Part shown: positions 29,160 through 63,140 of the stretch, one piece after another
Layout: each line of letters opens with the position of its first letter
Position numbering within the stretch: the stretch's first letter is position 1
Assembly (NCBI GenBank): GCA_041737125.1
Contig: JBGSSJ010000010.1
Span: 22,354-86,353, forward strand
Direction: 5' to 3'
Origin: Minisyncoccia bacterium
GTDB taxonomy: Bacteria; Patescibacteriota; Minisyncoccia; Phycocordibacterales; UBA9973
Length of the DNA: 64,000 bases
The notes under the pieces: generated by a model
The model's database searches: none
What the model saw: only the letters and a program-made list of their open reading frames with translations
Told to the model about the DNA's origin: nothing
Position numbers and translations under genes: made by a program

Positions 29160-29186
29160 CCTGTTTGAAGTTATAAATGTTACATT

Positions 29187-30935: not shown

Positions 30936-31049
30936 GATGATATTATAACATAATTACGAATTACTAATTAAGAATTACGAATCAAATACCACTTAGACTT
31001 AATTTAATGGGCTTAATTACTAATTATTCACTCGTAATTCGTAATTGTC

Positions 31050-32792: not shown

Positions 32793-32816
32793 TCGTAATT
32801 ATTAATTCGTAATTTT

Positions 32817-34535
32817 TTAAATCACTTCTTGTTGATAACACTTCTCACAATATACTATCTCGGGTCTTTCGGGTGCAAAGCTCGTTTCGAATTCATTATT
32901 ACACCCTTCTTTCATACACGAACGGTGCCAAAGCTTCATAGGATTTTTAAGATTTATCCTTTCTATATATCTACAATTATGACACATATCAGGGGCTGGT
33001 ATGCCTAGCGACTTATAAATATTAAATTCATCGGGTAGCACTCGGAACGCAGTCGTACAATTATGGTTACACTCACCCCTATGCTTGCATTCGATAATAC
33101 CATGGATAATCTCTTCATCAGCAAAAGAATTATTATGTAAATCCTCTGCTGTAATAGTTATGCTGTATGACTTTTCTTCTTTATCTTTCCATGAATAACC
33201 AGAAGCAAGTGCAGACTCTTTATCGAGTGGATAATAATCTTGTAGAGGCGTCTCGTTGTAAGAAAATATAGAAAGCTCTGAGGGAAAGAAATCGCCATAC
33301 TTATAAACCCTACCTATCTTATCGACATACGGTAACTCATTCATATGACTTTTGATCTTTTCTATCATTTTAGAATATTCTTCCTTTTCGTATTGTTTAT
33401 TTAGAATGCAATACTTTTTATTACGTAATGAAATGGAACCGAAAGAATCACTCGTGGTATAGCAATTATCACAATACCATAGGTCGAAACAACTAGAATA
33501 ACAGAAGCATGAGAGATATATTTTGCTTGATTCTATCGGTGACATCGTATGGTAGCAAAGCTCACTAGATGGGTAACTATGAGAAAGGTCCATAGAATCT
33601 TTCGCTCCATTGCAGACGAAACCATACTTTGTATTCTCAGAATCAACAGCAGCATAGACTTCTTTGCAATTCCTAGAGTTTATAATACTATCCCCTGTGC
33701 AATTATCTGTGTTCTCTAGAATTGCGTATTTATTTATAGTTTTCTTTTTTAGATTTTCAAAAATTTCTTTACATGCATACAAACCACTAAAAGTAGATAA
33801 TTGTAAATCTTCTTTTATTTTAAAATAATCTTCCCTTGTGTATTGCTCATTGAAGATACAGTAATTCTTATTCCGGAGATTGGTACACCCGATGCAGTTC
33901 GAGCAGTTACGACAATTATATAAAAAGCTTGAGTCCAAACAACTATCACAATTCTGAGAGAAGCTAACCTTATAACAAGATTCACAATCAACAAGCATAT
34001 ATGACCACTCGGAGAACCTGGTCATCGAGCAAGATGAGCAATTCTTGTCCCTTGTACATTGTGGCCCCATGAAATAGCAATCTTCTGACTCTCCAATACT
34101 AAATGATAGATAAATATTTTTCACATTGGCTGCATGATTAGTGTACTCACTATTCACCTTATTGGAACCTATGAGATTAATGCGTGGAGCCTTGCTCGAT
34201 AACTCTTTCCACTGTTCGAAGAATGGACGAGTGAAATCATAATCCTGTCCATAATCCGCAGGATCCCAGCCATCGCCATAGAAGCAGTCTTTGCAGAAAA
34301 CTTTAAAAGTATTCCCTGTATGATACATGGAAATTATATTTGTATTACAAAGGTCGCAATTCCTTTTATACAAAGACATGTTGTTCCGGAAAGCGTACCT
34401 TAGCTTAAACCTACACTCCGGACAAAATGTCGGAGCAGGAACCTTTATCTTTTCATAGAAAGAAAAGTCCTCAGGTTCTATAGTGAAGTATATTTTACAG
34501 TTCTGACATATTTTGTTTTCCGTTTGATTAGTCAT
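32817..34535 (-). CDS. Cysteine-rich zinc-ribbon-capped repeat protein, paralog A2
   Basis: 572 aa; MTNQTENKICQNCKIYFTIEPEDFSFYEKIKVPAPTFCPECR ... CRNCSNCIGCTNLRNKNYCIFNEQYTREDY ... YAPERPEIVYCEKCYQQEVI. Confidence 0.85.
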   Translation of the reverse strand: MTNQTENKICQNCKIYFTIEPEDFSFYEKIKVPAPTFCPECRFKLRYAFRNNMSLYKRNCDLCNTNIISMYHTGNTFKVFCKDCFYGDGWDPADYGQDYDFTRPFFEQWKELSSKAPRINLIGSNKVNSEYTNHAANVKNIYLSFSIGESEDCYFMGPQCTRDKNCSSCSMTRFSEWSYMLVDCESCYKVSFSQNCDSCLDSSFLYNCRNCSNCIGCTNLRNKNYCIFNEQYTREDYFKIKEDLQLSTFSGLYACKEIFENLKKKTINKYAILENTDNCTGDSIINSRNCKEVYAAVDSENTKYGFVCNGAKDSMDLSHSYPSSELCYHTMSPIESSKIYLSCFCYSSCFDLWYCDNCYTTSDSFGSISLRNKKYCILNKQYEKEEYSKMIEKIKSHMNELPYVDKIGRVYKYGDFFPSELSIFSYNETPLQDYYPLDKESALASGYSWKDKEEKSYSITITAEDLHNNSFADEEIIHGIIECKHRGECNHNCTTAFRVLPDEFNIYKSLGIPAPDMCHNCRYIERINLKNPMKLWHRSCMKEGCNNEFETSFAPERPEIVYCEKCYQQEVI

Positions 34536-34572
34536 TTTTTATCTACTTTACTTAACTAAAGTCAACAATAAT

Positions 34573-36321
34573 CTATATAACTTCTTGTTGATAACACTTC
34601 TCACAATATACTATCTCAGACCTTTCTGGTGCATAAGTAGTCTCGAATTCTACTTGGCACTTTCCTTCATGATTATGACCTTCTTTATCACACATACAAA
34701 TACGATGCCAGAGCTTCATAGGATTCCTTTGCCTCAAACGAAGTTCGTGGCGACAATTAGGACAGTACTTGGGTAATGACAAATTCATCTGTTTGTAAAA
34801 AGCGAGCTCTTCTGGAAGAATTCTAAACGCAGTAGTACAAGTACTAGAAATATGTGCACACTCAATTATTTCACCTAGAATTGAATTGTCTACTTTTTTA
34901 ATATCTCTCTCTATATCTTTATTAAATATTGTAATTTTATATTCTTTATTTTCTTTTTCACGCCAGAGAAATCCTTCAGCCAATGCTTCTTCTTTATCTA
35001 TTGGAAAGATTTCTTGAACAATTGATTCGTTATAATTAAAAGGAGAAAATTCTATAGGAAAAAATTCTCCGTACTTATACTCAAGACCACGAGGAGTTAT
35101 GTACGGCATGGCGTTCATATGCTCAATAATCTTATTTCTTAATTTTATATATTCATCTTTTGAATATTGTTTATTAAATATACAATATTCTTTATTCCGA
35201 AGACCAATACAACCAAAAAGATTATTCGAACCGACACAATAATGGCAATACTCAAGAAAACGACCTTCTGGGAAACAACCATTTGAAAAAAGTACACGAT
35301 TAAGATTTGTACCGCTTTTAATTGTTTCATATACTTCGATCGCATTCTCACCATAGAATGAGTAATCATAACAATCTTTTACTGGACCAATGTAGCAAAG
35401 AAAACAATTCTTGGAATCCTCAACTCCATCTGATTGATAGATTGTCTTTGAATTTTTTGAATGGAGGACATAATCTCCAGTCACTTCAATATTTTGCTTA
35501 CCATGCATATATTTTTGAGGAAATTGAAGTGAGCTTTCTTTAATTTTTTGTTTTACGGCTTCTATGTCATTTAAGGCTTCAAGTAGAAGCTCATTTATCT
35601 TTTGCTCATAATCTTCTTTTAAATATTGTTCATTGTAAATACAATATTGTTTCTTTCGTAAATTAGTACAACCAAAACAATTCGAACAACCAACTAAATT
35701 TTTAGAAAAATAGATATCATATGAATCTTCGCTATCTATAGAGTAGAAAGCTCGGTAGCACTTCCTTATATTCACACATTCAAAGCAATGCTCACTTTTA
35801 TGTGTCATATAACAATCGAAACAATTTTTAATAAAAGAAACAGTATCGCAATAGTATGAATCTTCAACGACGTCTGCGTAGAAAACTAAATACGCATTCT
35901 TTAGTCGCCCTGCTCCATTACAATAAGGACTATTTATCATAGTGGGCTCTTCTACTCCGAGCGCCATCCAGGGTACTGTCTGAAGCATTTCTTTCATTTG
36001 TTCAAAAATTGGCCTGGAGAAATCAACATCTCGAGCATACATAAATGCATCCCACTCGTCACTCCACCAACATTTATTACAATAAACAGTAATTTGCTCG
36101 TCTGGATGGTACATAGTAAAAGCCTCTTTATTGCACAATCCACAAACTCGCTTATAGAGAGCACGTTTATTGTAGTGATAGAGCCGTCTCTTTAATCTAC
36201 ACTCCGGGCAAAATGTCGGTGGAGGAACTTTTATCTTTTCATAGAAAGAAAAGTCCTCAGGCTCAATAGTGAAGTTCTCTTTACAGTTCTGACACGCTCT
36301 ATTTTCTGTTTGATATTCCAT
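34573..36321 (-). CDS. Cysteine-rich zinc-ribbon-capped repeat protein, paralog A3
   Basis: 582 aa; MEYQTENRACQNCKENFTIEPEDFSFYEKIKVPPPTFCPECR ... GCSNCFGCTNLRKKQYCIYNEQYLKEDY ... YAPERSEIVYCEKCYQQEVI. Confidence 0.85.
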   Translation of the reverse strand: MEYQTENRACQNCKENFTIEPEDFSFYEKIKVPPPTFCPECRLKRRLYHYNKRALYKRVCGLCNKEAFTMYHPDEQITVYCNKCWWSDEWDAFMYARDVDFSRPIFEQMKEMLQTVPWMALGVEEPTMINSPYCNGAGRLKNAYLVFYADVVEDSYYCDTVSFIKNCFDCYMTHKSEHCFECVNIRKCYRAFYSIDSEDSYDIYFSKNLVGCSNCFGCTNLRKKQYCIYNEQYLKEDYEQKINELLLEALNDIEAVKQKIKESSLQFPQKYMHGKQNIEVTGDYVLHSKNSKTIYQSDGVEDSKNCFLCYIGPVKDCYDYSFYGENAIEVYETIKSGTNLNRVLFSNGCFPEGRFLEYCHYCVGSNNLFGCIGLRNKEYCIFNKQYSKDEYIKLRNKIIEHMNAMPYITPRGLEYKYGEFFPIEFSPFNYNESIVQEIFPIDKEEALAEGFLWREKENKEYKITIFNKDIERDIKKVDNSILGEIIECAHISSTCTTAFRILPEELAFYKQMNLSLPKYCPNCRHELRLRQRNPMKLWHRICMCDKEGHNHEGKCQVEFETTYAPERSEIVYCEKCYQQEVI

Positions 36322-36327
36322 TCTTTA

Positions 36328-36756
36328 TTACTTCAACTTACCATAATGATAACCGTCGTCTTCCTCTATCTCATCATTATGTTTCTTCTCTTCTGCTGAA
36401 ATATAGCCTTTTTTATTACTTAAAGTGTTCTCTACCCAAAATGTATAAGTTGGGTTCATCATGGCTGTATCGAGTCTTGTAATCATAGGAGCAGAATATG
36501 AGTGAATATGGCTTATAAATTTAATAAGCTCATCACTACGTACCTTTTGGGTGGTTAGCATAAGCATATATTGCTCTGTATCTTGGATAACACCATGCCA
36601 TGGATAAACTGAGCCTATAACCCAATAATCTGCAGATATTGCAAGCTTTTTCTCTATAACTGCAAGACCAATAGCCCGTGCCTCATCAGCACTTTCACAA
36701 GTAGTATAGACGAAAACAATTTCTTTTGAGCCTGTTGTTACTTCTTCTACTATCAT
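36328..36756 (-). CDS. cutA: CutA1 divalent-cation tolerance protein
   Basis: IVFVYTTCESADEARAIGLAVIEKKLAISADYWVIGSVYPWHGVIQDTEQYMLMLTTQ matches the CutA fold signature (VYTT..EA..IA..L.EKLAAC). Confidence 0.7.
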   Translation of the reverse strand: MIVEEVTTGSKEIVFVYTTCESADEARAIGLAVIEKKLAISADYWVIGSVYPWHGVIQDTEQYMLMLTTQKVRSDELIKFISHIHSYSAPMITRLDTAMMNPTYTFWVENTLSNKKGYISAEEKKHNDEIEEDDGYHYGKLK

Positions 36757-36798
36757 ACTAATATGATAGTAATTATTATTTATATTAGCAAGAGGGAT

Positions 36799-37344
36799 CT
36801 AGTTGCGTGACATGTACTTGTAATTCACCAATAGTAGGATAGTGAATAGAGCAGTTGTCAGAGCCATAAGTGGCATAGTTATATAACCGAATTCATGCAC
36901 AAATACAGCAGCACAAGATACAACTCCTGGTCCGCCAGTCGCACAAGCAAGTGATGATGCTCCACCATTCTCTACGTAAATGTGGAATATAGACACGAGA
37001 GAATTTAGAACCGCAAGTACTATGGATTGATCAACGATTGCCCTGTCCCTCTTATATAACTCCATACCGAAAAGGATGACTTGAGGATATATGAATATGC
37101 GACTTATCCAACAAAGTTCACAAGGTGGGAACCCTACGACATTGGAATAGAATAGGCTTAGCAATGTAGCAGAGAGTGCAGTAATAAATCCAAAAATGAA
37201 AGTATACTTCTTAAAGAAGAGTAATAATGGATTCGTATGTGAACGGAAGAATAGTAGATTTAGAAGTAATCCAACTACAACAATCTGAAGGAATATCGTT
37301 CCCAGTGCAAGTATTTGATTAAGCGTTGTTACGTATGCAGGCAT
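36799..37344 (-). CDS. Disulfide bond formation protein B family (DsbB / BdbC-like)
   Basis: 4-TM protein with PCELCWISRIFIYPQ (compare BdbC C-x-L-C-W-Y-Q-R..YP and DsbB CVLCIYER) and a second Cys pair (C...SCAAV) in the second loop. VKOR was considered but the Cys order fits DsbB. Confidence 0.6.
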   Translation of the reverse strand: MPAYVTTLNQILALGTIFLQIVVVGLLLNLLFFRSHTNPLLLFFKKYTFIFGFITALSATLLSLFYSNVVGFPPCELCWISRIFIYPQVILFGMELYKRDRAIVDQSIVLAVLNSLVSIFHIYVENGGASSLACATGGPGVVSCAAVFVHEFGYITMPLMALTTALFTILLLVNYKYMSRN

Positions 37345-37345
37345 A

Positions 37346-37930
37346 TTATTGTGGAAGTGTGTAGCCTATTTGCTGTGCTAGGAATTCTAGTGATGTCTCA
37401 CCTGTGACACTAGAGCCTGATTCGAATTTCCATACTCCATCTTTCACCACAGGGTCGGTTAGACTTTTCACAGAGAAGGGATATCCTGGGAACCTCCAAG
37501 TCTTATAGAATTCTGATCCTATTTGAGCACATATTGGGTCTTCACCCTCTTTACCTGGCTTGATAGAACAAGTAACAGGTTCTGTACTTGAAGCTATGGT
37601 TATGCCGTTTGCGAATTTCCACGTAGGGAAGCTCTCAATCTTCTCATCTACGCATATTTGGACTGGCGATCTATTTGGATTTGAACATTCTACATATGGT
37701 AAATACTTCTTTGAACTACCGAATAATGCCTTCTCAGCTATGCAATGCGGACACCAGAATGCTCCATAGAATACTGCACCATTACTCTTAAGTGCCTTTG
37801 CAAAATCATCGTATTTACCAGGCTTCTGATTCTTATTCATAAAGACCCCAAGTCCAATAACGAATAATATAATAATAACTATAAATAAGATAAATTTAGT
37901 TTTCATAATGTGATTATACCAAAAAGCCAA
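37346..37930 (-). CDS. Membrane-anchored thioredoxin-fold thiol:disulfide oxidoreductase (DsbA / BdbD-like, CPHC active site)
   Basis: N-terminal TM then AVFYGAFWCPHCIAEK; CPHC is identical to the E. coli DsbA active site. Alternative start at MKTKFILF (37906). Confidence 0.75.
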   Translation of the reverse strand: MAFWYNHIMKTKFILFIVIIILFVIGLGVFMNKNQKPGKYDDFAKALKSNGAVFYGAFWCPHCIAEKALFGSSKKYLPYVECSNPNRSPVQICVDEKIESFPTWKFANGITIASSTEPVTCSIKPGKEGEDPICAQIGSEFYKTWRFPGYPFSVKSLTDPVVKDGVWKFESGSSVTGETSLEFLAQQIGYTLPQ

Positions 37931-39956
37931 GCTTTAACCAAAGTGACACAAATGGTGAAAGTATCAGGTTCCATATGACCTTTAGTATTTCTAATAATTT
38001 ATTAGTATCAGGTACGACATCACCTGCATTTGCTGTTAATATATTAATATCTTGTTCTTCCATTTCTTCTGGTTGTGTTTCTACTATAGCGACTTTATTT
38101 TCTATAATTTTCTTTATTGACTTTGGTGCTACTATTTCTTCTACTTCTGGTTTTTCAACTTCTGTAGCTAGAACAATAATGTCTTTCATTTCTTCCTTTA
38201 TGGGTTCTACTTTATCACTGCCTCCTTCCTCTTCTTTTTCTTCTCCTTCTTTGTCGAAGGATGACATTATGTCATTCCAAGATAGATGTAGTGCTCCCGG
38301 GATAGCATAAGATGTTGCCCAAATACGGTTATTTATATTATCTGTAACTTGTTCCATGCCTCCATCTGTCTGCTGGGCGAGAGCCATATAACTATCCCCT
38401 TTTGCGACTTCAGCATTCAATGAATAATTGGCAGATAGTGCTTGAAGTGCCCAGCTTGTACCATATGAGTTACCGAAGGATCCATCACTACCCTGCTTCC
38501 CCACTAGATAATTCTCTGCTTTTGTTATAGCATCTTCTAATCCGGACATATTTTTAAAATTCCGTAATGCCATAATCCCTGCTGAAGTAGTATCCATATT
38601 CTCCCAAGACCCATCATTTGATTGCTTAGAAATTAAATAAGAAATACTTTTCTCTATAATTTCATCATTTTTACTGTAGCCTGCATTTTTAAGAACTATT
38701 AATGCAAAAATGTCATCGTTGATAATAGATGTATCTCCAAACTGATTCCCATCAAAAGATGAAATTATTTTCTCTATGTAATTTATACTTGTTCCGTTGT
38801 AAGGATTAATATCAAGAGCCATCATCGCCATAGCATGACGTTCATTATCAGTAAGCATAGTAGAATTCATCGGGTTATTCTTCATATACTCTGCCACTCT
38901 CTCTTTTGCACTATTTGCCCTGTTACCGGCACTAGATAATGCTATCGCCACCCAATCTGTATAAAGCGCGTCGCCGAACGATCCATCAGTATTCTGTTTA
39001 CTAATTAAATACGAAAGTGCGTTATCTACGGAGAAAGTTTTCGTAGTTGATCCACCACCTCCACCAGAAGAAGGTGCACTTACAGTGACTTCATACGAAG
39101 GAAAATAATAATCTTCTGATATGCCGACGTTATAAGTACCCGCTTCTACAAATGTGAGAGTTGCCTCCCCGTTATCATTCACGGGGTGAGTAGACACTAT
39201 TATAGGATTCCATGCATTATCCGGATTTGTTTTTGTAATACCTACACTTACACCAGTACGAGTAATCCAAGTATTATCCGTATAATTATATGATTGTGCT
39301 TTTGCTATTATGCTCTCGCTTATATTAATAGTATTACTGCTAAGCTCAATACGATATGGGTTACCGAAATAAAGATTAATAAATTCCCCACCAGTAAGCA
39401 TTGTCGTATCGATACTAGTCCATGGACTAAAGCCCCCAACTACATACTGCCAGCTATCACAAAGTGGTTCCATTTCCCCAACAGTAATACACTTTAAATA
39501 AAAAGAGGAGAAAGAATCGTAATATTGTAAATTCGATATTGTAAATGCATCACTTGCTTGATCTAAATTATATAGAACTCCGAGCACACTCCTTGCATTT
39601 ACTTGATGTAGATTACCATTACTATCCACTATCTCTATCATTCCCTCCTCTGGTAAATCTATATCACCACTATATATTACAGTATCACCACTGCGCATAA
39701 AAAAACTTTCCTTTAAGGTTATCTCTTCTTCCTCTATAATTTCCTCCTCGTCTTCTTCTATAATTTCTTCTATTTCATCTTCAACAACTTCTTCTTCTGG
39801 AGTAACTATTTCATCTTGGGCATCTTCTTCTGTTATAGGTTCACTGACAATTACCATTTGCTCCTCTACAGCAAATTCTTCAGCAGAAATATTAAAGGTG
39901 GGTACGAATATTATAAACGTTAGAACTATTGATAATAAGACTTTGTACTTTTTCAT
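37914..39956 (-). CDS. Secreted protein with acidic linker, DUF4430-like segment and prenyltransferase / squalene-oxidase (alpha/alpha-toroid) repeats; putative transcobalamin-like alpha-domain protein
   Basis: Signal peptide MKKYKVLLSIVLTFIIFVPTFNISA; EEEIIEEEE acidic tract; repeats LISKQNTDGSFGD / LISKQSNDGSWEN / LVGKQGSDGSFGN (QxxDGSW/F-G toroid repeats); C-terminal hydrophobic tail. Confidence 0.6.
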   Translation of the reverse strand: MKKYKVLLSIVLTFIIFVPTFNISAEEFAVEEQMVIVSEPITEEDAQDEIVTPEEEVVEDEIEEIIEEDEEEIIEEEEITLKESFFMRSGDTVIYSGDIDLPEEGMIEIVDSNGNLHQVNARSVLGVLYNLDQASDAFTISNLQYYDSFSSFYLKCITVGEMEPLCDSWQYVVGGFSPWTSIDTTMLTGGEFINLYFGNPYRIELSSNTINISESIIAKAQSYNYTDNTWITRTGVSVGITKTNPDNAWNPIIVSTHPVNDNGEATLTFVEAGTYNVGISEDYYFPSYEVTVSAPSSGGGGGSTTKTFSVDNALSYLISKQNTDGSFGDALYTDWVAIALSSAGNRANSAKERVAEYMKNNPMNSTMLTDNERHAMAMMALDINPYNGTSINYIEKIISSFDGNQFGDTSIINDDIFALIVLKNAGYSKNDEIIEKSISYLISKQSNDGSWENMDTTSAGIMALRNFKNMSGLEDAITKAENYLVGKQGSDGSFGNSYGTSWALQALSANYSLNAEVAKGDSYMALAQQTDGGMEQVTDNINNRIWATSYAIPGALHLSWNDIMSSFDKEGEEKEEEGGSDKVEPIKEEMKDIIVLATEVEKPEVEEIVAPKSIKKIIENKVAIVETQPEEMEEQDINILTANAGDVVPDTNKLLEILKVIWNLILSPFVSLWLKLGFLV

Positions 39957-39966
39957 AGATTTATTA

Positions 39967-40503
39967 TTAATTCATAAGACCTTCCCTCTTCCATTCGACT
40001 ACATCTTTATCTTTTAATACATACTGCGATACACCAATTTCAGCCTTTTTATCATTCACATAATAAATCCAATAAGCGCCCGACTCTCCTTTTACTCCAT
40101 TGATACTATCGACAAAGTAACCCATTCCTCCAAATTCTCTCCCTTCAAATGTAAAATTTTTACTCACATCACTCTTAACATTGTTCATTAAATCATAAAC
40201 GCTTTTATCTTTCTCAATATTTGTTTCGTAAATTTTGCCATCAACAATCAAACTTGCTTTTATTTCTTCGTTCACATCTTTATTTATTTCTTGCTTTTTC
40301 TCTACTTGTGGGCTCGGAGATATATTTTCATTCTTTATTGCAATATTTTCTTTTTCTAATTCAGGAGATGATATTACGTTCTCTTTATTATTAACTTCCG
40401 GAGCAAGAACCACTTTATCTTTCTTTACATACGGATAAACATAAAAAGCAATCAAGATAAGCAAGGAAACTATTATTATAATCTTATTTTTGATGTTTTT
40501 CAT
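39967..40503 (-). CDS. Membrane-anchored DUF4430-like (transcobalamin beta-domain-like) protein
   Basis: TM anchor, then C-terminus ...GAYWIYYVNDKKAEIGVSQYVLKDKDVVEWK typical of DUF4430. Start set at MKNIKNK (40503), because the upstream part of the ORF-finder ORF is occupied by a cobalamin riboswitch with terminator. Confidence 0.55.
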   Translation of the reverse strand: MKNIKNKIIIIVSLLILIAFYVYPYVKKDKVVLAPEVNNKENVISSPELEKENIAIKNENISPSPQVEKKQEINKDVNEEIKASLIVDGKIYETNIEKDKSVYDLMNNVKSDVSKNFTFEGREFGGMGYFVDSINGVKGESGAYWIYYVNDKKAEIGVSQYVLKDKDVVEWKREGLMN

Positions 40504-40506
40504 AAT

Positions 40507-40680
40507 AAAAAAACTGCCTTGGTGGGCAGAAGTATGTAGATGTAAATACATCTCTCCTGCTCGGGATACATCTATTGTATTAAGATCGGACTCGTCCTTA
40601 AACATTTTCATGTCAGGCTTTACCGTTGCGGCACAGTGGAGGGATTTACCTCACTTCCAAATACTATAGGTTAAATTTTA
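40507..40680 (-). promoter_or_regulatory. Cobalamin (B12) riboswitch with intrinsic-terminator expression platform
   Basis: Minus-strand sequence UUUGGAAGUGAGGUAAAUCCCUCCACUGUGCCGCAACGGUAAAG matches the cobalamin riboswitch core (GGGAA..GGUGAAAAUCC...GCCACUG..CCGCAACGGUAA). A B12-box-like GAGCAGGAGAGA lies downstream, and the terminator CUGCC-CACCAA-GGCAG + UUUUUUU ends 4 nt before the ATG of the DUF4430 gene. Confidence 0.6.
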
Positions 40681-40687
40681 AAATACA

Positions 40688-41221
40688 CTAAACTCTTCTA
40701 AGCTTCGAGACCAGGACTGGAATACTTAACTTGCTCTCTTTCCTTTCTTTTGCTAACCACATTTCTATCACTGGTGAGAGAACTATAGCAAATGCCACAT
40801 TACCTAGCAAGTGAAGAGCAGTGAATGGTATCTGACCTATGAGTGCACCCATGAATGATTGTCCGAAGAATAATGGCCCTAGGGTGAGTCCTGTAAATGC
40901 ATCATATAGAATAGTCGCTATGATTGCATACTTCACGTAGTTGGCGCGTCCTTTCCTATTCTTAAAGAAAAAGCTTGCACCTATTCCCACCATTCCATAA
41001 GCAAGTGCTGTGACAAGAGTCCAGACGCCGATACCTGCGGTTACAGAATCATATATGACAATACTCCCTGCTCCAAAGATGAAAGCCAAAAGAGGGCCAT
41101 AAGCTTTCCCGAAAGGCATAGACACAGCCATAATAGGCTCTATATTTGGAGCCCGGAATGGCAAAAGGCGCATAAGAAGCACGGCTACAAAGGCAATTGT
41201 GTATTTAACAGATTTTCTCAT
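40688..41221 (-). CDS. Small polytopic membrane protein, ECF-transporter S-component-like (putative cobalamin / corrinoid uptake)
   Basis: 177 aa, ~6 TM, Arg/Lys-rich N-terminus and no Cys; size and topology resemble ECF S components. Assignment is from context (B12 riboswitch, NrdJ), not from motifs. Confidence 0.35.
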   Translation of the reverse strand: MRKSVKYTIAFVAVLLMRLLPFRAPNIEPIMAVSMPFGKAYGPLLAFIFGAGSIVIYDSVTAGIGVWTLVTALAYGMVGIGASFFFKNRKGRANYVKYAIIATILYDAFTGLTLGPLFFGQSFMGALIGQIPFTALHLLGNVAFAIVLSPVIEMWLAKERKESKLSIPVLVSKLRRV

Positions 41222-41267: not shown

Positions 41268-43580
41268 TTACACTATATCACAGACTCCAGCGACACAAGC
41301 AAGCTCCTTCTTCACTTCAGTTTCATCTTTTATCTCGTAAGTAACTATCTTTGAGAAATCAAACTCTGGCATTTTAGAAACTAATTCTTTGTACTTCCTC
41401 TCATCAATTGCTTCGTAAGGAGCAAGTTGGTAGACGTGGTTCGTGCGAGGTAAGAATGAAAGTCCTCCAACAATATCCCAGTTCTGATACAACCAGTGTG
41501 CAACTTTAATCCATTCATTCTCTCCGACTGAAATAGTAACAGATGGATTATGCTCTGTGTAATTTACTTTTACTATTTTCCAGTGTTCAAGCTGATCGAT
41601 AGCTGATATGTCATCTTTACAAATTGCTTTCTCTGGAGCTTTGAGTGGGAATTCGAGGACATAAGTATTCGCACCATCTTGTGTTTGCCCTACTTCTGGG
41701 TGATATGGCACTCCTTGGTCTTTCATCATTTTGAAAAGTGCATCTGTAGCAGAGATACGAACACGACGGATATAGAATGGTGAATGCCTTGGATGCATAC
41801 CTGATGCACAGTCAACTGTCTGTGAAACTGTCCCTGAGGGCTTCACACAAGTGATGCAAGTAGATTCATTAATACCGAAACGCTTTGCATAAATTTTATT
41901 CACACGGATCGCTTCGTTCTTCAACTTCTGTAGCATCTTAGCATCACGAGCAAGAGTCGAATCCCACTGGCCTGTGATAGACACACCGAGCAATCTTTCT
42001 GCTTCACAATTTTCTTTCCATTCTTTAGATAAGTATCCGAACTTCACAAGAGTTGATTGATAAGTACCTAGTATTGTTGCTACGCGAACTTTCCTCATCA
42101 AAGTCTCTTCTGTGTCCTCTGCGCGAGCGATAACTTCTGATAGATTACAGAATTGCTTTGAACGAAGGATTATTTCTCCGCAAGGATTCGTACCCATCTC
42201 GCCAATGAAATCTTTCGATACTTCTATTCGGCGCTTTGGAAGTGAAGTAGTAAGTGAGCCACGATTGAATATCCCTCTCTCTCCAGAGCCAGACTCCATA
42301 AGAGCAATCCATTCCTTTAGAAACTCTGTCTCTGTAGGTTTTGTATTATAGACTGCTGAGTTATTCGCAAGCATGCGTTGACCCTCATTCACCCAGAATT
42401 GGCCATTCTTTGCATCACGCATCTCCTTATCATCCAAATCAGACAGTGATATAAGGGCGCTACGGCGAACTCCACCAGAGACTACGCATTCACCAATCTT
42501 ACATATTATGTCATGAGCATCTATATTGCGTAGATGGCGACCTTGGCGACGAAGTATTCTCTCGCGAGTAAAACCAAGCAAGTCTATAAGTGGCTGAGGT
42601 CCAGAACTTTTACCCCCCATTGTTTTAAGTCTTGCCCCCGCAGGACGAAGAAGTGAGAAATCAAATTCTACATCGTTACCATCAAACCATGTCTTCATAC
42701 CATGCACGAATGCATCTGCCCAATCTTCTTTCGTATCAGGAACTACATATGTAGGTAACTTTTTACCACTTTGCATTTTGATTTGTGGAAGAGCTTGAAT
42801 ATTTTTACTTTCGATAGAGAATCCTACTCCTGTACCACACATTGAAATATAAATTATTTCTCCGAAATCTTGGAATGATGATGGTGCAATGAATGAACAA
42901 TTGTAAGCACATACATTTGTCTTCTCTGCGGCAGCACCTGCGAATTGCATAAGGCGCATTGATGGCATGGACTCTTGTCGGAGTATTGTCATACGTACTT
43001 CTTCGTACTCAGAATCTTTGAGAAGTTTTCCTAATTTACCTTTCATGAAATTTATATAACGATCGACTGTCTCTATCCAAGTCTCGCGTCTACTCTCTTC
43101 TTCAATCCACTTTGAATAAGATCTGTAGTAAACGAATTCAGAAAATGGATTGCGAAAATATTTCTTACTCTCGTCTGTCAATTTCTTCACATGCGGAGAC
43201 ACAGTCACACTATGAGAACGCAATCTTGCACGCTCTTCACGATAGAGAATGTAATCTTTGGATGCTTTTACATAGTCTGCAAGCATCAACTGTCTCTCTA
43301 CAGCGTCTTGTATAGACTCTACAGTAGGAATGAAACCTTTATTTGCCTTCACAATTGCACCTATTTCATCTACTACCTTTTTTGCTACTACTTCTGCCTC
43401 TTTTACAGAGCCTTCACTCGAAGCAAGCATTGCTTTATTAATAGCATTCACTATTTTTTCAAAATCAAAAGGTGTAACTTGACCATCTCTCTTTTGAACG
43501 CTTTTAATAAAACCATTCTTGTTTGAAACTTTTTTTGCGACCACTTTTTTCGCACTTGCAGATACTTTTTTTGAAGGCAT
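41268..43580 (-). CDS. nrdJ: Class II (adenosylcobalamin-dependent) ribonucleotide reductase with N-terminal ATP-cone
   Basis: ATP cone (VQKRDGQVTPFDFEKIVNAINKA); active-site TNPCGEI (class II signature, versus NLCxEI in class I); C-terminal redox pair CVAGVC; no nrdB or nrdG nearby. Confidence 0.8.
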   Translation of the reverse strand: MPSKKVSASAKKVVAKKVSNKNGFIKSVQKRDGQVTPFDFEKIVNAINKAMLASSEGSVKEAEVVAKKVVDEIGAIVKANKGFIPTVESIQDAVERQLMLADYVKASKDYILYREERARLRSHSVTVSPHVKKLTDESKKYFRNPFSEFVYYRSYSKWIEEESRRETWIETVDRYINFMKGKLGKLLKDSEYEEVRMTILRQESMPSMRLMQFAGAAAEKTNVCAYNCSFIAPSSFQDFGEIIYISMCGTGVGFSIESKNIQALPQIKMQSGKKLPTYVVPDTKEDWADAFVHGMKTWFDGNDVEFDFSLLRPAGARLKTMGGKSSGPQPLIDLLGFTRERILRRQGRHLRNIDAHDIICKIGECVVSGGVRRSALISLSDLDDKEMRDAKNGQFWVNEGQRMLANNSAVYNTKPTETEFLKEWIALMESGSGERGIFNRGSLTTSLPKRRIEVSKDFIGEMGTNPCGEIILRSKQFCNLSEVIARAEDTEETLMRKVRVATILGTYQSTLVKFGYLSKEWKENCEAERLLGVSITGQWDSTLARDAKMLQKLKNEAIRVNKIYAKRFGINESTCITCVKPSGTVSQTVDCASGMHPRHSPFYIRRVRISATDALFKMMKDQGVPYHPEVGQTQDGANTYVLEFPLKAPEKAICKDDISAIDQLEHWKIVKVNYTEHNPSVTISVGENEWIKVAHWLYQNWDIVGGLSFLPRTNHVYQLAPYEAIDERKYKELVSKMPEFDFSKIVTYEIKDETEVKKELACVAGVCDIV

Positions 43581-43825: not shown

Positions 43826-45541
43826 TTAGAGAACTTCCTGCTGGTAACAACTCTCACAGTATACCCTTTCCGGCCTATCTGGGGCATATGTAGTCTCGAA
43901 TTCTCTCCCACAACCATTACTACATAGTCTTTTATATAGTTTCATTGGATTTCGGTAGACTAAACGCTGGTAATGACGACAGTTCGGACAGTAGTGAGGT
44001 AATGGTAGTGAATTTTGCCTATAGAACAGAAGCTCTTCCTTTGTAAGCTTGAAAGCATTGGTACATTGATATTTATAATCACCTTTATTCGGGCATTCTA
44101 GGATATCATTTAGTATGTCATCTGTTACATTTTCTATACTATTAGGTAAAGTTTCAAAATTTTTTGTCGGAACGTAATTTCTTACTTCTGGCTCTTTCCA
44201 ATTAAGACCCAAGTCTATTATCTGTTCTTTTGTTTTAGGAAAGTAATCATGAGCCATAGTTTCATTATATCCAAATGGGCACATAAAATACGGGAAAAAG
44301 TCTCCATATGAAAATACTCTTCCCATGGAATCTTTCAATGGTAAATCCACCATATGCTTTCTCAGTAATGGTGATATTTTTAAATATTCTTCTTTAGAAT
44401 ATTGTTTATTTAAAATACAGTATTTAGCATTTTTCAAACCAACACAACCGAAACAGTCGGAGCAATTACGACAGTTCAAAGAGTGTTCCATGTTTGTAGA
44501 ATTAAAACAAACTACACATCCTATTTGATTACTTGAATCCTGACTACCAGAAATATTTTCATATTGCAATTCTCCATTTAAAACCCAACAACAATCTTTC
44601 AAATCTTTCGTATTAACAACTCTAAATGTATTAGAAATATTTTCAGATTTAAAAACATCAAAAGAATTATTTATGTCTTTTGAATTATTAATATGATCGC
44701 CTTTTACATTTACTGAATTCAAATTTTTTGCAAACTTAAATATTGCTTTTTCTTTAATTAAAGAAAATTCATTCCGTGCATTATTAAAACCAGAAAAAGT
44801 ATTCAACTTTAACTCTTTTACTTTTTCTAAATATTCGTCCTTACTTAATTGTTTATTTTTAAAGAAATAAGATTTATTTCTGAGGTTTGTTGATAAACAA
44901 CAGTTTGAACAGTTTGAACAATCGTACAGGAAATAAGAATCTATATTTTTATTTGAATCAATCACGAAATGACAATTATAATTTTCTAAACAATCTATAT
45001 TCCAAGAACATCTATCAATATTTCCACAATAAAGACAATCAAGTGAATTCTTCGAGTTATCAACATTTTCAGAGAATGAAATATCTTCTGAATTTACCAA
45101 AGAAAATGCTAAATATATATTCTTAGAATTAGCTACCGAATTAGAATAATCACAATTTATAACTGTACCACCAAGCTTATACTGAAAAATACGAGGTTGA
45201 ATATAGAATAATTCATTTATCTGATTAAATATCGGAATACTCAAATCAATTTCTTTTTGATACATAAATGGATCCCAATTATCCCCCATCCAACACTCTC
45301 CACACATTACAGGAGCTCCATCCTCTTTATAAACTGATAATAATGACTTAGAGCAAAGACTACAAGTACGTTTATAAAACGACCTATGATTTCTCCAGCA
45401 CATTCTCCTTATCATCCTGCACTCTGGGCAAAACGTAGGCGGTGGAACTTTAATTTTTTCATAGAAAGAAAAGTCTTCTAATTCAATAATGAAGTTCTCT
45501 TTGCAATTTTGACACGTTCGGTTTTCTACTTGATTTTCCAT
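43826..45541 (-). CDS. Cysteine-rich zinc-ribbon-capped repeat protein, paralog B1
   Basis: 571 aa; MENQVENRTCQNCKENFIIELEDFSFYEKIKVPPPTFCPECR ... CSNCSNCCLSTNLRNKSYFFKNKQLSKDEY ... YAPDRPERVYCESCYQQEVL. Confidence 0.85.
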   Translation of the reverse strand: MENQVENRTCQNCKENFIIELEDFSFYEKIKVPPPTFCPECRMIRRMCWRNHRSFYKRTCSLCSKSLLSVYKEDGAPVMCGECWMGDNWDPFMYQKEIDLSIPIFNQINELFYIQPRIFQYKLGGTVINCDYSNSVANSKNIYLAFSLVNSEDISFSENVDNSKNSLDCLYCGNIDRCSWNIDCLENYNCHFVIDSNKNIDSYFLYDCSNCSNCCLSTNLRNKSYFFKNKQLSKDEYLEKVKELKLNTFSGFNNARNEFSLIKEKAIFKFAKNLNSVNVKGDHINNSKDINNSFDVFKSENISNTFRVVNTKDLKDCCWVLNGELQYENISGSQDSSNQIGCVVCFNSTNMEHSLNCRNCSDCFGCVGLKNAKYCILNKQYSKEEYLKISPLLRKHMVDLPLKDSMGRVFSYGDFFPYFMCPFGYNETMAHDYFPKTKEQIIDLGLNWKEPEVRNYVPTKNFETLPNSIENVTDDILNDILECPNKGDYKYQCTNAFKLTKEELLFYRQNSLPLPHYCPNCRHYQRLVYRNPMKLYKRLCSNGCGREFETTYAPDRPERVYCESCYQQEVL

Positions 45542-45572
45542 TTGTAATTATTAATTCGTAATTTATAATTTT

Positions 45573-47288
45573 CTACAGTACTTCTTTCTGATAACATTTC
45601 TCGCAATAAACTCTCTCTTCTCTATCTGGGGCATATGTAGTCTGAAATTCTCTCCCACAACCATTACTACATAGTCTTTTATACAATTTCATCGGGTTTC
45701 TGTACGCTAGACGCTGGTAATGGCGACAATTTGGGCAGTAATGAGGTAGAGGCAAGCTCTTTTGTTTATAGAATTGCAACTCAGTAGGCATGATACGGAA
45801 AGCAGTGGTGCATTGTGTCAGCTGGTTACCATTATTTGGACAGGATATTGTTTGATTTAGTATATCTTCATTAACATCCGTAATATTATCTGACAAATTA
45901 TCACTATCAATTGTAATTTTATAATCTTTATTTTCTTTTTCTTTCCATGGATAACCAAGTTCTGTAGCTTTCTCTAAACTTATTGGGAAGTAATCTAAAT
46001 TTACAGTTTCATTATATCCAAAAGGAGAGAACTCAAATGGGTAGAATTCTCCATAGACATAAACTCTACCCTTACTATCTATATAAGGATTATCAATCAT
46101 GAATTTTCTTAATTTAGAAACAAGGGCCTCATATTCTTCTTTTTCATATTGTTTATTCAAGATACAATATTTAGCATTTTTTAAACCAATACAACCAAAG
46201 CAGTCGGAGCAATTCTTACAGTACAAGGAGTACTCCATATTTTTAGAAGACAAACAAAGTATTGAACCAATTTGATTATATGAGTTACTGCTTGCTGACA
46301 ATGATTCGTAAGCAATTTCACCAGTAAGTATATATGAGCAATCGAATATATCATTTGATTTTATTATTCTAGTTGAATAACGAATATTCTCTGCAGTATT
46401 TGATATGTCATATGAATGAAAAACATCTTTAGAATTAAAAATAAAATCTCCCGTAACATTCTGGCTTGATACTATGTTTGCATATTTATGAATTGCATCT
46501 TTATAAATAAAATCAAATTCTTCTTTAGTTTTATTGAAACCGGAGTATGTTTCGAGTTTTAGTTCACCAAGAGCCTTTTGATATTCTTCTTTAGTTAGTT
46601 TGATATTCTTGAATACATACTGCTGGTTCCTTAAACTAGAAGACAGGCAACAGTTCTGACAATTCACACAATCATAAAGGAAAGATGAATCAATACAAGA
46701 ACTGGAAGATAATATAAAGTGTGAGTTGTAATTCTTATCAGATAGCATGTTCCATGTGCATTGATCGAGATCATAGCTTGCAAAGGAGTCTATCGTATTA
46801 CGAGATCTATCTATGCTTTCAGAATACATTATGTCTTCACAATCTATGACTGAAAAACATAAATATACATTTTTACAATTAACTACTGAGTTACCATAAT
46901 CGCTATTAATAACATTCCCAATCCTATACTGGTATATGCGAGGCTGCTTCCTGAATAATGAATACAATTGTGAGAAGAAACTTGTAGTCCAATCTATTTC
47001 CATTCCATGCTCGAATTGATCCCAGCCATCTCCGTTATAACACTCTATACAATAGACAGGTACCCCGTCGTCTTTATACATTGATATTAAATTTTTACTA
47101 CAAAGACCACAACTTCTTTTGTATAAAGATCTATTATTCCTCCAAATCATTCTCCTTATCATCCTACACTCCGGGCAAAAGGTAGGTGGTGGAACCTTTA
47201 TCTTTTCATAGAAAGAAAAATCTTCTGGTTGTATAGTAAAACTCCCTTTGCAATTCTGACATATTCGGTTTTCCGTTTGATTTTCCAT
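45573..47288 (-). CDS. Cysteine-rich zinc-ribbon-capped repeat protein, paralog B2
   Basis: Start set at MENQTENRICQNCKGSFTIQPEDFSFYEKIKVPPPTFCPECR (47288); the ORF-finder start at 47372 would overlap B3 by 74 nt. Ends YAPDREERVYCEKCYQKEVL. Confidence 0.85.
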   Translation of the reverse strand: MENQTENRICQNCKGSFTIQPEDFSFYEKIKVPPPTFCPECRMIRRMIWRNNRSLYKRSCGLCSKNLISMYKDDGVPVYCIECYNGDGWDQFEHGMEIDWTTSFFSQLYSLFRKQPRIYQYRIGNVINSDYGNSVVNCKNVYLCFSVIDCEDIMYSESIDRSRNTIDSFASYDLDQCTWNMLSDKNYNSHFILSSSSCIDSSFLYDCVNCQNCCLSSSLRNQQYVFKNIKLTKEEYQKALGELKLETYSGFNKTKEEFDFIYKDAIHKYANIVSSQNVTGDFIFNSKDVFHSYDISNTAENIRYSTRIIKSNDIFDCSYILTGEIAYESLSASSNSYNQIGSILCLSSKNMEYSLYCKNCSDCFGCIGLKNAKYCILNKQYEKEEYEALVSKLRKFMIDNPYIDSKGRVYVYGEFYPFEFSPFGYNETVNLDYFPISLEKATELGYPWKEKENKDYKITIDSDNLSDNITDVNEDILNQTISCPNNGNQLTQCTTAFRIMPTELQFYKQKSLPLPHYCPNCRHYQRLAYRNPMKLYKRLCSNGCGREFQTTYAPDREERVYCEKCYQKEVL

Positions 47289-47298
47289 TCGTAATTTT

Positions 47299-49020
47299 CT
47301 ATAGGACTTCTTGCTGATAACAGTGTTCACAGTATACCCTCTCCGGCCTGTCTGGAACATAACTTGTTTCAAATTTATTATTACACCCTTCTTTCATACA
47401 ATTCCTCTGCCAAAGTTTAGCAGGTAAAATTTTAGCAAATCGTTCGTAGTGTCTGCAGTTTGAACATTTGGTAGGGAGTGGAATATTGTTTTTCTTATAA
47501 AAATCAAATTCATCTTTTGTAATTTTAAAGGCGATCGTGCACCTATGGTCGCACTTTCCTTCATGTTCACAACCTAGGACCTCTTTTAATATAGATTCAT
47601 CCACATCATTTATATGATCAGGTATACTATTTGAATTTATTGTTATGTGGAAATCTTTACTTTCGTGGTCTTTCCATTTGTAACCCTTTCTAATTGCTTC
47701 CTCTTTAGTTATCGGCATTAAATCATAAGCTGGTGTTTCGTTATAAGCTAAAGCAGAAATTTCAATAGGGAAAAATTCACCATACTTATATTCGCATCCC
47801 GCTTTATCATAATAAGGATCTGTGTTCATTTGATTTACTATATCAGCCCGAATTTTATTAAAATCTTCTTTTGAGTAAACTTTGTTTAAAATAGAATATT
47901 CTTTATTACGTAAACCAATGCATCCAAAAATATTGGAACAAGAAATACAAGAATCAGTATATTCTGCATTCTGAACATTACCCATGGCAGCATAAGAAAA
48001 TTTCACATTATAATCATCTTTTGCTCCAGTACTATATTCATACATGAGTTCTGATTTGCCAGCATAATCTGTGTCCATATTATCTTTAAATAAGAAAGCT
48101 CTGTAACAATTTTTCCCATTTTCTGCGTCATGAATATCAAAACAATTTTTACAATTATTCACGTTGGACAAATTATTGCCCGTTGAGTCCACTGATCTGA
48201 AAATATTTGCAAATCTATGTATGGCATTTTGTTTCATTCCTTCAAATTCCTCTATAATTCCTTTTCGAAAGTTCCTACTACCAAAATCAAACTTCTTCAG
48301 TTCTTTCAAATAATCTTCTTTTGTGTATTGAACATTAAAAATACAATATTCTTTGTTGCGTAAATTTGTGCATAAAATACAATTTGAACAATTTGCGCAA
48401 TCAAATAAAAAATATGAGTCAATGCAATTTCGTGACAAAACTAAATGCTGAGAATTATAGTTCTTCTCCCCTTCTACAACTTCATAACATCTATCACAAT
48501 CCACTAAATTATATGAATCAAATATATTAAAACAAGAATCTATGCCTTTTGAATAGAAAACATTTTCTGAACCTAATACTACTGATACTGATAGATAAAC
48601 ATTTTTACACTCTCCAACCATATTCGAATAATCTGAATCCGTCACGTTTCTTTGAAATAAGGCTAGGTGTGGAACTTTACTCTGTAACTCTTTAAATTGA
48701 TGAAAGAATGATTTACTAAAATCATAATCTACACCATGAGTAGAACCGTCCCACTTATCAGAATACCAACATTCTCTACAATATACAGGAAAAGGTGAAT
48801 CTGCCCCATACATTGCAATAATATTACTATTACATAGATCACAGACTCTTTTATATAAACCTCTTTCATTTCGCCACACCATTCGTCTAATACGCCTGCA
48901 ATCCGGGCAGAATGTAGGTGGTGGAACTTTTATCTTCTCATAGAAAGAAAAGTCTTCTGGTTCTATAGTGAAGTCCCTTTTACAATTCTGGCATGTTCGG
49001 TTTTCTGTTTGATGTTCCAT
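47299..49020 (-). CDS. Cysteine-rich zinc-ribbon-capped repeat protein, paralog B3
   Basis: Start set at MEHQTENRTCQNCKRDFTIEPEDFSFYEKIKVPPPTFCPDCR (49020); ends YVPDRPERVYCEHCYQQEVL. Confidence 0.85.
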   Translation of the reverse strand: MEHQTENRTCQNCKRDFTIEPEDFSFYEKIKVPPPTFCPDCRRIRRMVWRNERGLYKRVCDLCNSNIIAMYGADSPFPVYCRECWYSDKWDGSTHGVDYDFSKSFFHQFKELQSKVPHLALFQRNVTDSDYSNMVGECKNVYLSVSVVLGSENVFYSKGIDSCFNIFDSYNLVDCDRCYEVVEGEKNYNSQHLVLSRNCIDSYFLFDCANCSNCILCTNLRNKEYCIFNVQYTKEDYLKELKKFDFGSRNFRKGIIEEFEGMKQNAIHRFANIFRSVDSTGNNLSNVNNCKNCFDIHDAENGKNCYRAFLFKDNMDTDYAGKSELMYEYSTGAKDDYNVKFSYAAMGNVQNAEYTDSCISCSNIFGCIGLRNKEYSILNKVYSKEDFNKIRADIVNQMNTDPYYDKAGCEYKYGEFFPIEISALAYNETPAYDLMPITKEEAIRKGYKWKDHESKDFHITINSNSIPDHINDVDESILKEVLGCEHEGKCDHRCTIAFKITKDEFDFYKKNNIPLPTKCSNCRHYERFAKILPAKLWQRNCMKEGCNNKFETSYVPDRPERVYCEHCYQQEVL

Positions 49021-49031
49021 TCGTAATTGTT

Positions 49032-59773: not shown

Positions 59774-59847
59774 GGGGGGCTACTGGGAATCGAACCCAGA
59801 TCGAAGGTTCCACAAACCTCAGTGTTAACCGTTACACCATAGCCCCC
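59774..59847 (-). tRNA. tRNA-His (GUG) with encoded G(-1)
   Basis: Minus-strand GGGGGCUAUGGUGUAACGGUUAACACUGAGGUUUGUGGAACCUUCGAUCUGGGUUCGAUUCCCAGUAGCCCCCC folds as a cloverleaf; anticodon loop UUGUGGA; extra 5' G pairs with C73. Confidence 0.9.
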
Positions 59848-63057: not shown

Positions 63058-63140
63058 TGCGCAGAAGAGGATTTGAACCTCCACGCCCTTGCGAGCACTA
63101 CCACCTCAAGGTAGCGAGTCTACCGTTTCTCCACCTGCGC
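63058..63140 (-). tRNA. tRNA-Leu (GAG)
   Basis: Minus-strand GCGCAGGUGGAGAAACGGUAGACUCGCUACCUUGAGGUGGUAGUGCUCGCAAGGGCGUGGAGGUUCAAAUCCUCUUCUGCGCA; anticodon loop UUGAGGU; long variable arm. Confidence 0.85.

Follow-up and report, generated by a model that had tools for sequence, protein, structure and literature searches.

In the repressing corrinoid riboswitch of Priestia megaterium metE, a kissing loop between L5 and L13 stabilizes the P13 hairpin, as was demonstrated by Kennedy et al. through compensatory mutagenesis, and the ligand-bound RNA forms a terminator (PMC10327014). The L5 consensus reported in that work is UCCCG, and a bulged base in L13 is described there for env8. In the hydroxocobalamin (HyCbl) riboswitches of E. 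coli btuB and env8, an L5-L13 kissing loop also couples the aptamer to the expression platform, and these RNAs act on translation via a hairpin that hides the ribosome-binding site. A third relevant system is the nrdJ-cbrS-cbrT-pduO cluster of Lactobacillus delbrueckii, which is associated with ECF-CbrT, a vitamin B12 transporter of the energy-coupling factor (ECF) type (PDB 6FNP; PMC5997447). Here we describe an element on the minus strand, at 40687-40507, of a 64,000-nucleotide stretch of contig JBGSSJ010000010.1 from a Minisyncoccia bacterium; this whole stretch is called the window below. The element is a genuine and ordinary cobalamin riboswitch that we assign to the conventional OFF type, and its mechanism class is already known. 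It is very probably a repressing switch of the RF01482, or adenosylcobalamin (AdoCbl), type that acts mainly via transcription termination. It sits in cis before the genes for a DUF4430 protein and a Cobalamin_bind-like protein, in a cluster with nrdJ. Two things alone set it apart: the standard database threshold fails to catch this copy, and the element lies directly behind another gene.

A permissive Rfam scan of 40400-40800 returned a match to RF01482 (AdoCbl) at 40684-40531, which spans model positions 1-149 of 149 and scores 38.2 bits. The E value was 1.3e-5 for this 401-nucleotide scan, or about 2e-3 when scaled to both strands of the 64-kb window. The gathering cutoff of the family is 50 bits, a threshold that is operational and not a biological property. 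The core GGAAGUGAGGUAAAUCCCUCCACUGUGCCGCAACGGUAAAG is located at 40658-40618 of the minus strand, and the conserved motifs are found in the proper order at 40658-40582: the GGAA junction, GGU..AUCC in L4, YSCCG in L5, ACGGUAA, and the B12 box AGUC.G.UCUU. RF01482, which belongs to clan CL00101 together with RF00174 and RF01689, has the same helix order, GGAA junction, L4 motif, small L5 hairpin, ACGGUAA, and B12 box, followed by a 3' P13 hairpin with a CGAG-type loop. The window copy differs in that its P6 carries a 16-nucleotide extension and its P13 has only 3 bp, so that the 3' hairpin portion of the alignment to the model is poor. The first-pass annotation of this DNA had recognized a cobalamin-riboswitch core on the minus strand, and this holds: all of the sequences that it quoted are present, the RF01482 match is full length, and orthologues pass the cutoff. 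It had also labeled GAGCAGGAGAGA (40562-40551) as B12-box-like. That label was dropped, since the real B12 box, AGUCCGAUCUU, aligns with the Rfam consensus AAGUCAGGUCUUU, and GAGCAGG within the relabeled motif belongs to P13; the motif consists of the L13 loop and the P13 3' strand.

With a sub-cutoff Rfam score and uninformative single-sequence folding, the case rests on comparison with related sequences. Relatives were traced via the upstream 177-aa protein and the DUF4430 protein to genomes of the candidate phyla radiation (CPR), of the Paceibacterota/Nomurabacteria type. At the equivalent site, immediately ahead of the DUF4430 gene, elements were found in the related loci L002, L007, and L008 (48.2, 33.8, and 33.9 bits with Rfam, respectively) and in L009 (132.8 bits with R1, a covariance model built from 21 close relatives). 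A metagenome scan with a 23-base core pattern, which fixed L5 and part of the conserved core, gave at least 120 loci. All 20 of the class members that were re-scanned match a family of the cobalamin clan. Seven members of the closest group of the window score above the RF01482 cutoff (54.8-61.8 bits) and others pass RF00174 or RF01689, so that the window copy belongs, with a low score, to a family recognized by Rfam. The window shares all 36 columns that are invariant among 63 homologues, some of them fixed by the search pattern, and AGTCCGAT in the B12 box is likewise invariant but was part of that pattern.

The secondary structure was derived by hand from the Rfam alignment and evaluated in two alignments. 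In a MAFFT alignment of the 63 elements, 80.5% of the cells are paired, compared with 65.9% in shuffles, and none of 500 shuffles was as high. The P4 pairs in this alignment are CG (31), GC (26), UA (5), and AU (1), and the P5 closing pair alternates between U-A and A-U; neither is ever unpaired. The model R1 finds one copy in 99 of 100 sources and exactly one in the window (40687-40553). In the model-based alignment of 99 elements, 94.4% of the cells are paired, compared with 65.5% in shuffles and 33-47% with slid partners, and compensatory changes occur in 22 of the 28 pairs. Helices 1-2 (the P1-P3 stack, alignment A3) are 79-89% paired with compensatory changes in 10 of 10 pairs, and helix 6 (P6) is 91% paired with such changes in 4 of 4. 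P4 again has no unpaired case (CG 38, GC 35, AU 11, UA 9), and the P5 closing pair is U-A in 81 elements and A-U in 14, never unpaired. As a specificity control, 80 viral-contig loci collected with a looser 15-base pattern gave no covariance-model match and contained no true elements. Homology and covariation together show the aptamer fold, and the ligand is probably AdoCbl.

Some features of the class deserve separate mention. An A/U-rich leader, UUUAAAAUUUAA, lies just 5' of P1 and is kept across the riboswitch class; it corresponds to RF01482 positions 1-13, left unpaired by the model. Seven loci (L007 at 4839-4862, L008, and five others) have a hairpin of 19-30 nucleotides inserted in the L4 loop, which lowers the Rfam scores of its carriers; the near-syntenic L007 has one and the window copy has none. 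In a subgroup of seven loci and about 20 more, the 3' strand of P1 starts with ACAGC, and the riboswitch precedes proteins of 400-600 aa with no Pfam match, an uncharacterized and presumably B12-regulated family behind the same riboswitch class.

The expression platform consists of the short P13 hairpin, a spacer hairpin, and the terminator, in that order after the aptamer (Table 1). GAGCAGG is found 17-35 nucleotides after the B12 box in 77 of 121 distinct elements, outside the imposed search pattern. Where the exact motif is absent, the loop CG(N)GCA stays while the stem, UCC/GGA in the window, covaries (CUCU/AGAG, UUGA/UCAA, CCU/AGG, UUC/GAA, and GUCU/AGAC). The three inner pairs of P13 are intact in 68 of 74 elements, and a terminator defined by a strict rule is present downstream in 54 of 73. 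The sequence and length of the spacer hairpin vary among relatives. In 65% of the elements, AGCAGGA can pair over at least 6 bp with the terminator 5' arm, compared with 8% when the query strands are shuffled. When the P13 strands were permuted among the terminators, the observed complementarity was reached in 0 of 300 permutations, although the effect is small because one motif dominates. The comparison of sequences also shows the conserved P13, the conserved terminator, and the antiterminator/terminator complementarity, together with the gene association discussed below.

In the window, the two antiterminator strands form a helix of 7 bp. The alternative folds are predicted to be nearly isoenergetic, at -14.1 kcal/mol for the antiterminator and -14.0 kcal/mol for P13 plus the terminator. 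RNA truncated before the 3' arm of the terminator is predicted to fold as the antiterminator, and the same nascent fold is predicted for 63 of 74 class members. The first-pass annotation had placed a CUGCC-CACCAA-GGCAG terminator with seven U residues 4 nucleotides before the DUF4430 gene. The terminator is present, but the gap is 3 nucleotides: U7 is followed by AUU and then by the ATG at 40503-40501.

The following sequence of events is proposed. In the presence of bound ligand (a corrinoid, probably AdoCbl), L5 (UGCCG) would dock on L13 (CGAGCA), and this docking would keep the weak 3-bp stem of P13 (UCC/GGA) closed. The strand CUUCUGCC would then be free for pairing with GGCAG, the terminator would form before U7, and transcription would stop 3 nucleotides short of the DUF4430 start codon. 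Without ligand, P13 would open, GCAGGAG would pair with CUUCUGC, the 5' arm of the terminator would be occupied, and the polymerase would continue into the downstream genes. An activating (ON) switch was considered and rejected: P13 and the terminator share no strand, and the 3' side of P13 competes for the 5' arm of the terminator, which makes the arrangement a repressing one, as described in PMC10327014.

The window element has the same parts in the same order, and the same terminator/antiterminator logic, as the metE riboswitch of P. megaterium, and for this reason we assign to it the same repressing mechanism. The two differ in aptamer subclass and host phylum, and the P. megaterium RNA controls a B12-independent isozyme whereas the window element would control B12-capture candidates. 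In the window, P13 is far shorter and lacks an internal loop, the antiterminator encloses a spacer hairpin of its own, and the element is directly behind a co-directional gene. We infer that the window element may also make the L5-L13 kissing loop known from metE, btuB, and env8. The GCCG of L5 is complementary to CG(A)GC of L13, and the middle base of L13 can be A, C, or U, a variation that fits a bulge; the A would be the analogue of the bulged base in env8. Relative to the Rfam consensus (CcCg with CGAGG), the window is changed on both sides, with GCC for CcC in the L5 loop and CGAGCA for UCGAGGC in L13, a matching two-sided change.

Table 1. Features of the riboswitch and of the adjacent genes in the window (- denotes the minus strand).
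Feature	Coordinates	Strand	Remarks
A/U-rich leader UGUAUUUUAAAAUUUAA	40671..40687	-	RF01482 positions 1-13; starts 1 nt past the TAG stop (40690-40688) of the upstream gene
P1-P3 stack, 5' strand CCUAUAGUAU..	40660..40669	-	partner 40581-40572; 10 pairs, one A-A mismatch; Rfam alignment
P4/L4 hairpin G-U-GAGG UAAAUC CCUCC	40638..40654	-	conserved GGU..AUCC loop
P5/L5 hairpin UGU-GCC-GCA	40627..40635	-	L5 = UGCCG, proposed partner of L13 in the kissing loop
P6 hairpin and short extension, GCCU..ACAU-GAAA-AUGU..AGGAC	40594..40618	-	closed by CGG (40625-40623) / CCG (40589-40587)
B12 box / J6-3 region AGUCCGAUCUU	40582..40592	-	counterpart of Rfam consensus AAGUCAGGUCUUU
P1-P3 stack, 3' strand AAUACAAUAG	40572..40581	-	Rfam alignment, model R1, covariation
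P13 hairpin: UCC / loop CGAGCA (L13) / GGA	40555..40566	-	loop CG(N)GCA conserved, stem covaries
Antiterminator 5' strand GCAGGAG (3' half of L13 and P13 3' strand)	40554..40560	-	pairs with CUUCUGC, 40532-40526
Spacer hairpin AGAUGU-AUUU-ACAUCU	40538..40553	-	in both alternative folds; stacks under the antiterminator helix
Antiterminator 3' strand CUUCUGC	40526..40532	-	partly within the terminator 5' arm
Intrinsic terminator, stem CUGCC/GGCAG (5 bp, 4 G-C), 6-nt loop CACCAA, U7	40507..40529	-	stem-loop 40529-40514, U7 40513-40507
nrdJ, AdoCbl-dependent ribonucleotide reductase	41268-43580	-	upstream of the riboswitch
ECF S-component-like membrane protein, 177 aa, weakly CbrT-like	40688-41221	-	upstream of the riboswitch
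DUF4430 protein, 178 aa, N-terminal hydrophobic anchor	39967..40503	-	Pfam DUF4430, 50.2 bits vs 23.8
Toroid protein, 680 aa, secreted or anchored	37914..39956	-	Pfam Cobalamin_bind, 27.9 vs 25; SQHop_cyclase_C also passes
Thioredoxin-like CPHC protein, 194 aa	37346..37930	-	tightly packed, co-directional; no Pfam or NCBIfam match
DsbB	36799..37344	-	co-directional, adjoins the CPHC protein

Several observations count against the assignment of the element as a repressing cobalamin riboswitch. Of the Rfam support that the first-pass annotation anticipated, the full-length match to RF01482 was obtained, but at the gathering thresholds no cobalamin family was matched in either the whole window or the local region. 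Single-sequence folding was no better than for shuffles (z = -0.97) and is uninformative, P1 carries an A-A mismatch, and the stem of the terminator has 5 bp only, compared with 6-8 bp in most relatives. The R1 score of the window copy, 124.8 bits, is high partly by construction, as the window sequence is in the seed, and the model-based alignment leans towards structure, yet agrees with the MAFFT result. The kissing loop lies outside the covariation testing, since the search pattern fixed L5 and the wider viral scan held no true elements, and outside the dominant GCAGGA class few sequences (8 in the GCAAG class) show the antiterminator co-varying. The low Rfam score and the folding result are what might be expected of a degenerate element or a fortuitous resemblance that regulates nothing. 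We find this explanation scarcely credible, for the window copy retains every invariant column of the 63 homologues, its P13, antiterminator, and terminator are all intact, and the orthologous site is occupied in many genomes, with covariation. It is also conceivable that the hairpin acts mainly or additionally on translation, as in E. coli btuB/env8, by hiding the DUF4430 Shine-Dalgarno sequence in its 3' arm. In many relatives this arm is GCAGGAG or GCAGGA and ends 8-12 nucleotides before the AUG (five loci serve as examples), and the U-tract of the window ends merely 3 nucleotides from the start codon. The arm in the window is GGCAG, however, and the sole purine run, AAGG (40520-40517), is poorly spaced at 13 nucleotides from the AUG. 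Unlike btuB and env8, the window element ends in a G+C stem and U7, and a perfect U7 right after such a stem is the signature of an intrinsic terminator, conserved across the class. A translational role for this hairpin is thus rather unlikely in our judgment, and transcription termination is preferred, although transcriptional and translational effects can coexist.

Upstream of the riboswitch are nrdJ and the gene for the 177-aa membrane protein. The latter scores 21.4 against Pfam ECF-ribofla_trS, for which the cutoff is 26.7, its sole PDB match is 6FNP_A (E = 0.032 over 132 residues), and it has no NCBIfam match. The pairing of a B12-dependent ribonucleotide reductase with a small, putative ECF S-component-type membrane protein resembles the L. 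delbrueckii cluster, in which cbrT likewise adjoins nrdJ. There are differences, however: the 177-aa protein is only weakly similar to 6FNP, its neighbourhood yielded no homologue of pduO or cbrS, and the L. delbrueckii cluster has no DUF4430 or toroid genes, nor is a riboswitch mentioned in the paper (PMC5997447). In the limited literature searched, we found no relevant report that links DUF4430 to riboswitches or that treats cobalamin riboswitches of CPR/Patescibacteria.

Synteny was compared over 29 loci, which fall into two arrangements. In the lineage of the window the order is nrdJ, S-component-like gene, riboswitch, DUF4430, toroid, thioredoxin-like CPHC protein, and DsbB. Ten other loci, L007 and L067 among them, keep all or most of this arrangement, and shorter contigs keep part of it. 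The position given in the first-pass annotation, after nrdJ and the ECF-S-like gene and before the DUF4430 and transcobalamin-like genes, agrees with this gene order. In the second lineage (nine loci, including L008), the riboswitch stands alone before DUF4430 and toroid, and the genes after the toroid gene are on the opposite strand. The CPHC and DsbB genes are conserved behind the toroid gene, always adjacent to each other, only in the lineage of the window; in the other lineage the pair sits elsewhere, on the opposite strand. Gene content after DsbB varies, and CutA and one or more Cys-rich paralogs follow only in the window, L007, and L067. On the basis of these comparisons, the conserved regulon appears to comprise two genes (DUF4430 and toroid), or four in the lineage of the window with the addition of the thioredoxin-like and DsbB genes.

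Two questions about the transcript remain to be weighed: where it begins and how far it reaches. The riboswitch might head its own transcript, from a promoter in the last codons of the S-component-like gene, and so be an ordinary 5'-UTR (5' untranslated region) riboswitch that happens to abut a gene. The stand-alone lineage does have a conserved -10-like box (TAAAAT, TAGAAT, or TATACT) 7-8 nucleotides before the leader, and from L008 it is seen that a promoter of its own can serve the element. The hexamer at this offset is TAGAAG (40700-40695) in the window and TAAGAT, TAAAGT, or TAAGGT in relatives; TAGAAG lacks the final T and is a poor match. Scans for sigma-70 promoters found sites at the chance rate (8 vs 8.0 expected from shuffles; 76 vs 78). 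Between the upstream gene and the riboswitch there is no terminator, and the stop codon is 1 nucleotide from the conserved leader, so that read-through from nrdJ would be hard to avoid; among the related loci examined, 14 keep the abutting arrangement. A separate start is in our judgment somewhat less likely than not; both read-through from nrdJ and a weak internal promoter are possible. As for reach, the first-pass annotation had suggested that B12 status may gate the distal half of a co-directional array of about 30 kb, with CutA, the Cys-rich paralogs, and further genes in it. Down to about 21.5 kb the genes are indeed all co-directional with short gaps, and a scan of the minus strand between 28000 and 47500, based on a crude consensus, found no convincing terminator-like site besides that of the riboswitch, and hence none in 28000-40500 below it. 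However, a gap of 114 nucleotides at 30936-31049 and several of 24-42 nucleotides could hold promoters. The conserved block ends at DsbB, or after two genes in the second lineage, gene content behind DsbB is not conserved among relatives, and the same Cys-rich paralogs also occur upstream of nrdJ. Control over the remaining 15 kb is possible because no other clear terminator was found, but conservation lends it no support, and we consider gating of the whole distal array improbable. A regulon of two genes, or of four in the lineage of the window, is preferred.

The best promoter-like site of the region (TTGAGT and TATAAT separated by 16 nucleotides) is at 43657-43630 on the minus strand, about 50 nucleotides ahead of where nrdJ starts. 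As a candidate promoter, it could give an nrdJ transcript that may extend as far as the riboswitch. On both sides of the B12 module, at 29187-36321 and 43826-50702 of the minus strand, lie genes for eight paralogous proteins that are Cys-rich and 556-599 aa long. They have weak zf_Tbcl_2 matches only, and in relatives, too, members of this family adjoin nrdJ.

Transcobalamins carry DUF4430 at their C-terminus, as the beta-domain (PMC4350170), and a DUF4430 gene is the first downstream open reading frame in 65 of 103 class elements. In B12 binders of the transcobalamin/intrinsic factor type, this domain and an alpha/alpha toroid jointly surround the cobalamin. As the first-pass annotation had noticed, the program-made reading frame at 39967-40611 runs through the riboswitch. 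The public gene call on the identical contig, the only one to carry an identical upstream protein, is over-long in the same way (212 aa). The true start is most likely the ATG at 40503 and not 40611. The predicted structure of the toroid protein (predicted local distance difference test score, 81) begins with a beta-rich N-terminal part, continues as an alpha/alpha toroid, and ends in a helix. An identification of this protein as a transcobalamin by fold alone was rejected as not discriminating, since Foldseek ranks three folds alike: the transcobalamin matches (2V3N, 8e-7; 2BB5; 4ZRP) are no better than those to terpene cyclases and to thioester-containing (TED) domains of complement. A B12-binding role is supported by context and not by the fold. 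The toroid protein has at least 446 relatives, named "terpene cyclase/mutase family protein" by NCBI, and five of the homologues also contain DUF4430 as a fusion, whereas the window has two separate proteins. Together, the riboswitch control, the Cobalamin_bind match, and the DUF4430 fusions suggest that the NCBI name is wrong. The DUF4430 and toroid proteins are candidates for surface or secreted B12 capture.

Dependence on neighbouring cells for cofactors is presumed for CPR bacteria, and a putative B12-repressed capture module beside nrdJ thus offers a testable handle on how B12 is acquired. One reading of the locus, which we offer tentatively and at somewhat less than even confidence, is a polycistronic B12-dependent attenuator in a B12-auxotrophic CPR bacterium. 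Here nrdJ and the S-component-like gene, lying upstream of the switch, would escape B12 control and be always on, whereas a split counterpart of transcobalamin (DUF4430 plus toroid), matured by the thioredoxin/DsbB pair, would be made only in shortage. If this is true, the large "terpene cyclase/mutase" family of the CPR would be an extracellular system for the capture of vitamin B12. The riboswitch marks the genes downstream of it as B12-related, and for this reason the several hundred CPR proteins of this family are more likely cobalamin binders working with DUF4430, as judged from gene context. This clue to what the DUF4430 and "terpene cyclase" genes do in CPR bacteria is the most useful by-product of the analysis. 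For the riboswitch field the element is a routine addition, the terminator/antiterminator logic having already been proven in P. megaterium. For annotation it has some value, because the Rfam cutoff misses this copy in an A+T-rich CPR genome and gene callers absorb part of the riboswitch into an over-long DUF4430 reading frame.

At the gathering thresholds, the Rfam scan of the whole window returned two tRNA genes only. These are located on the minus strand at 59775-59846 and 63058-63140 and score 63.6 and 47.3 bits, respectively; the second has a long variable arm.

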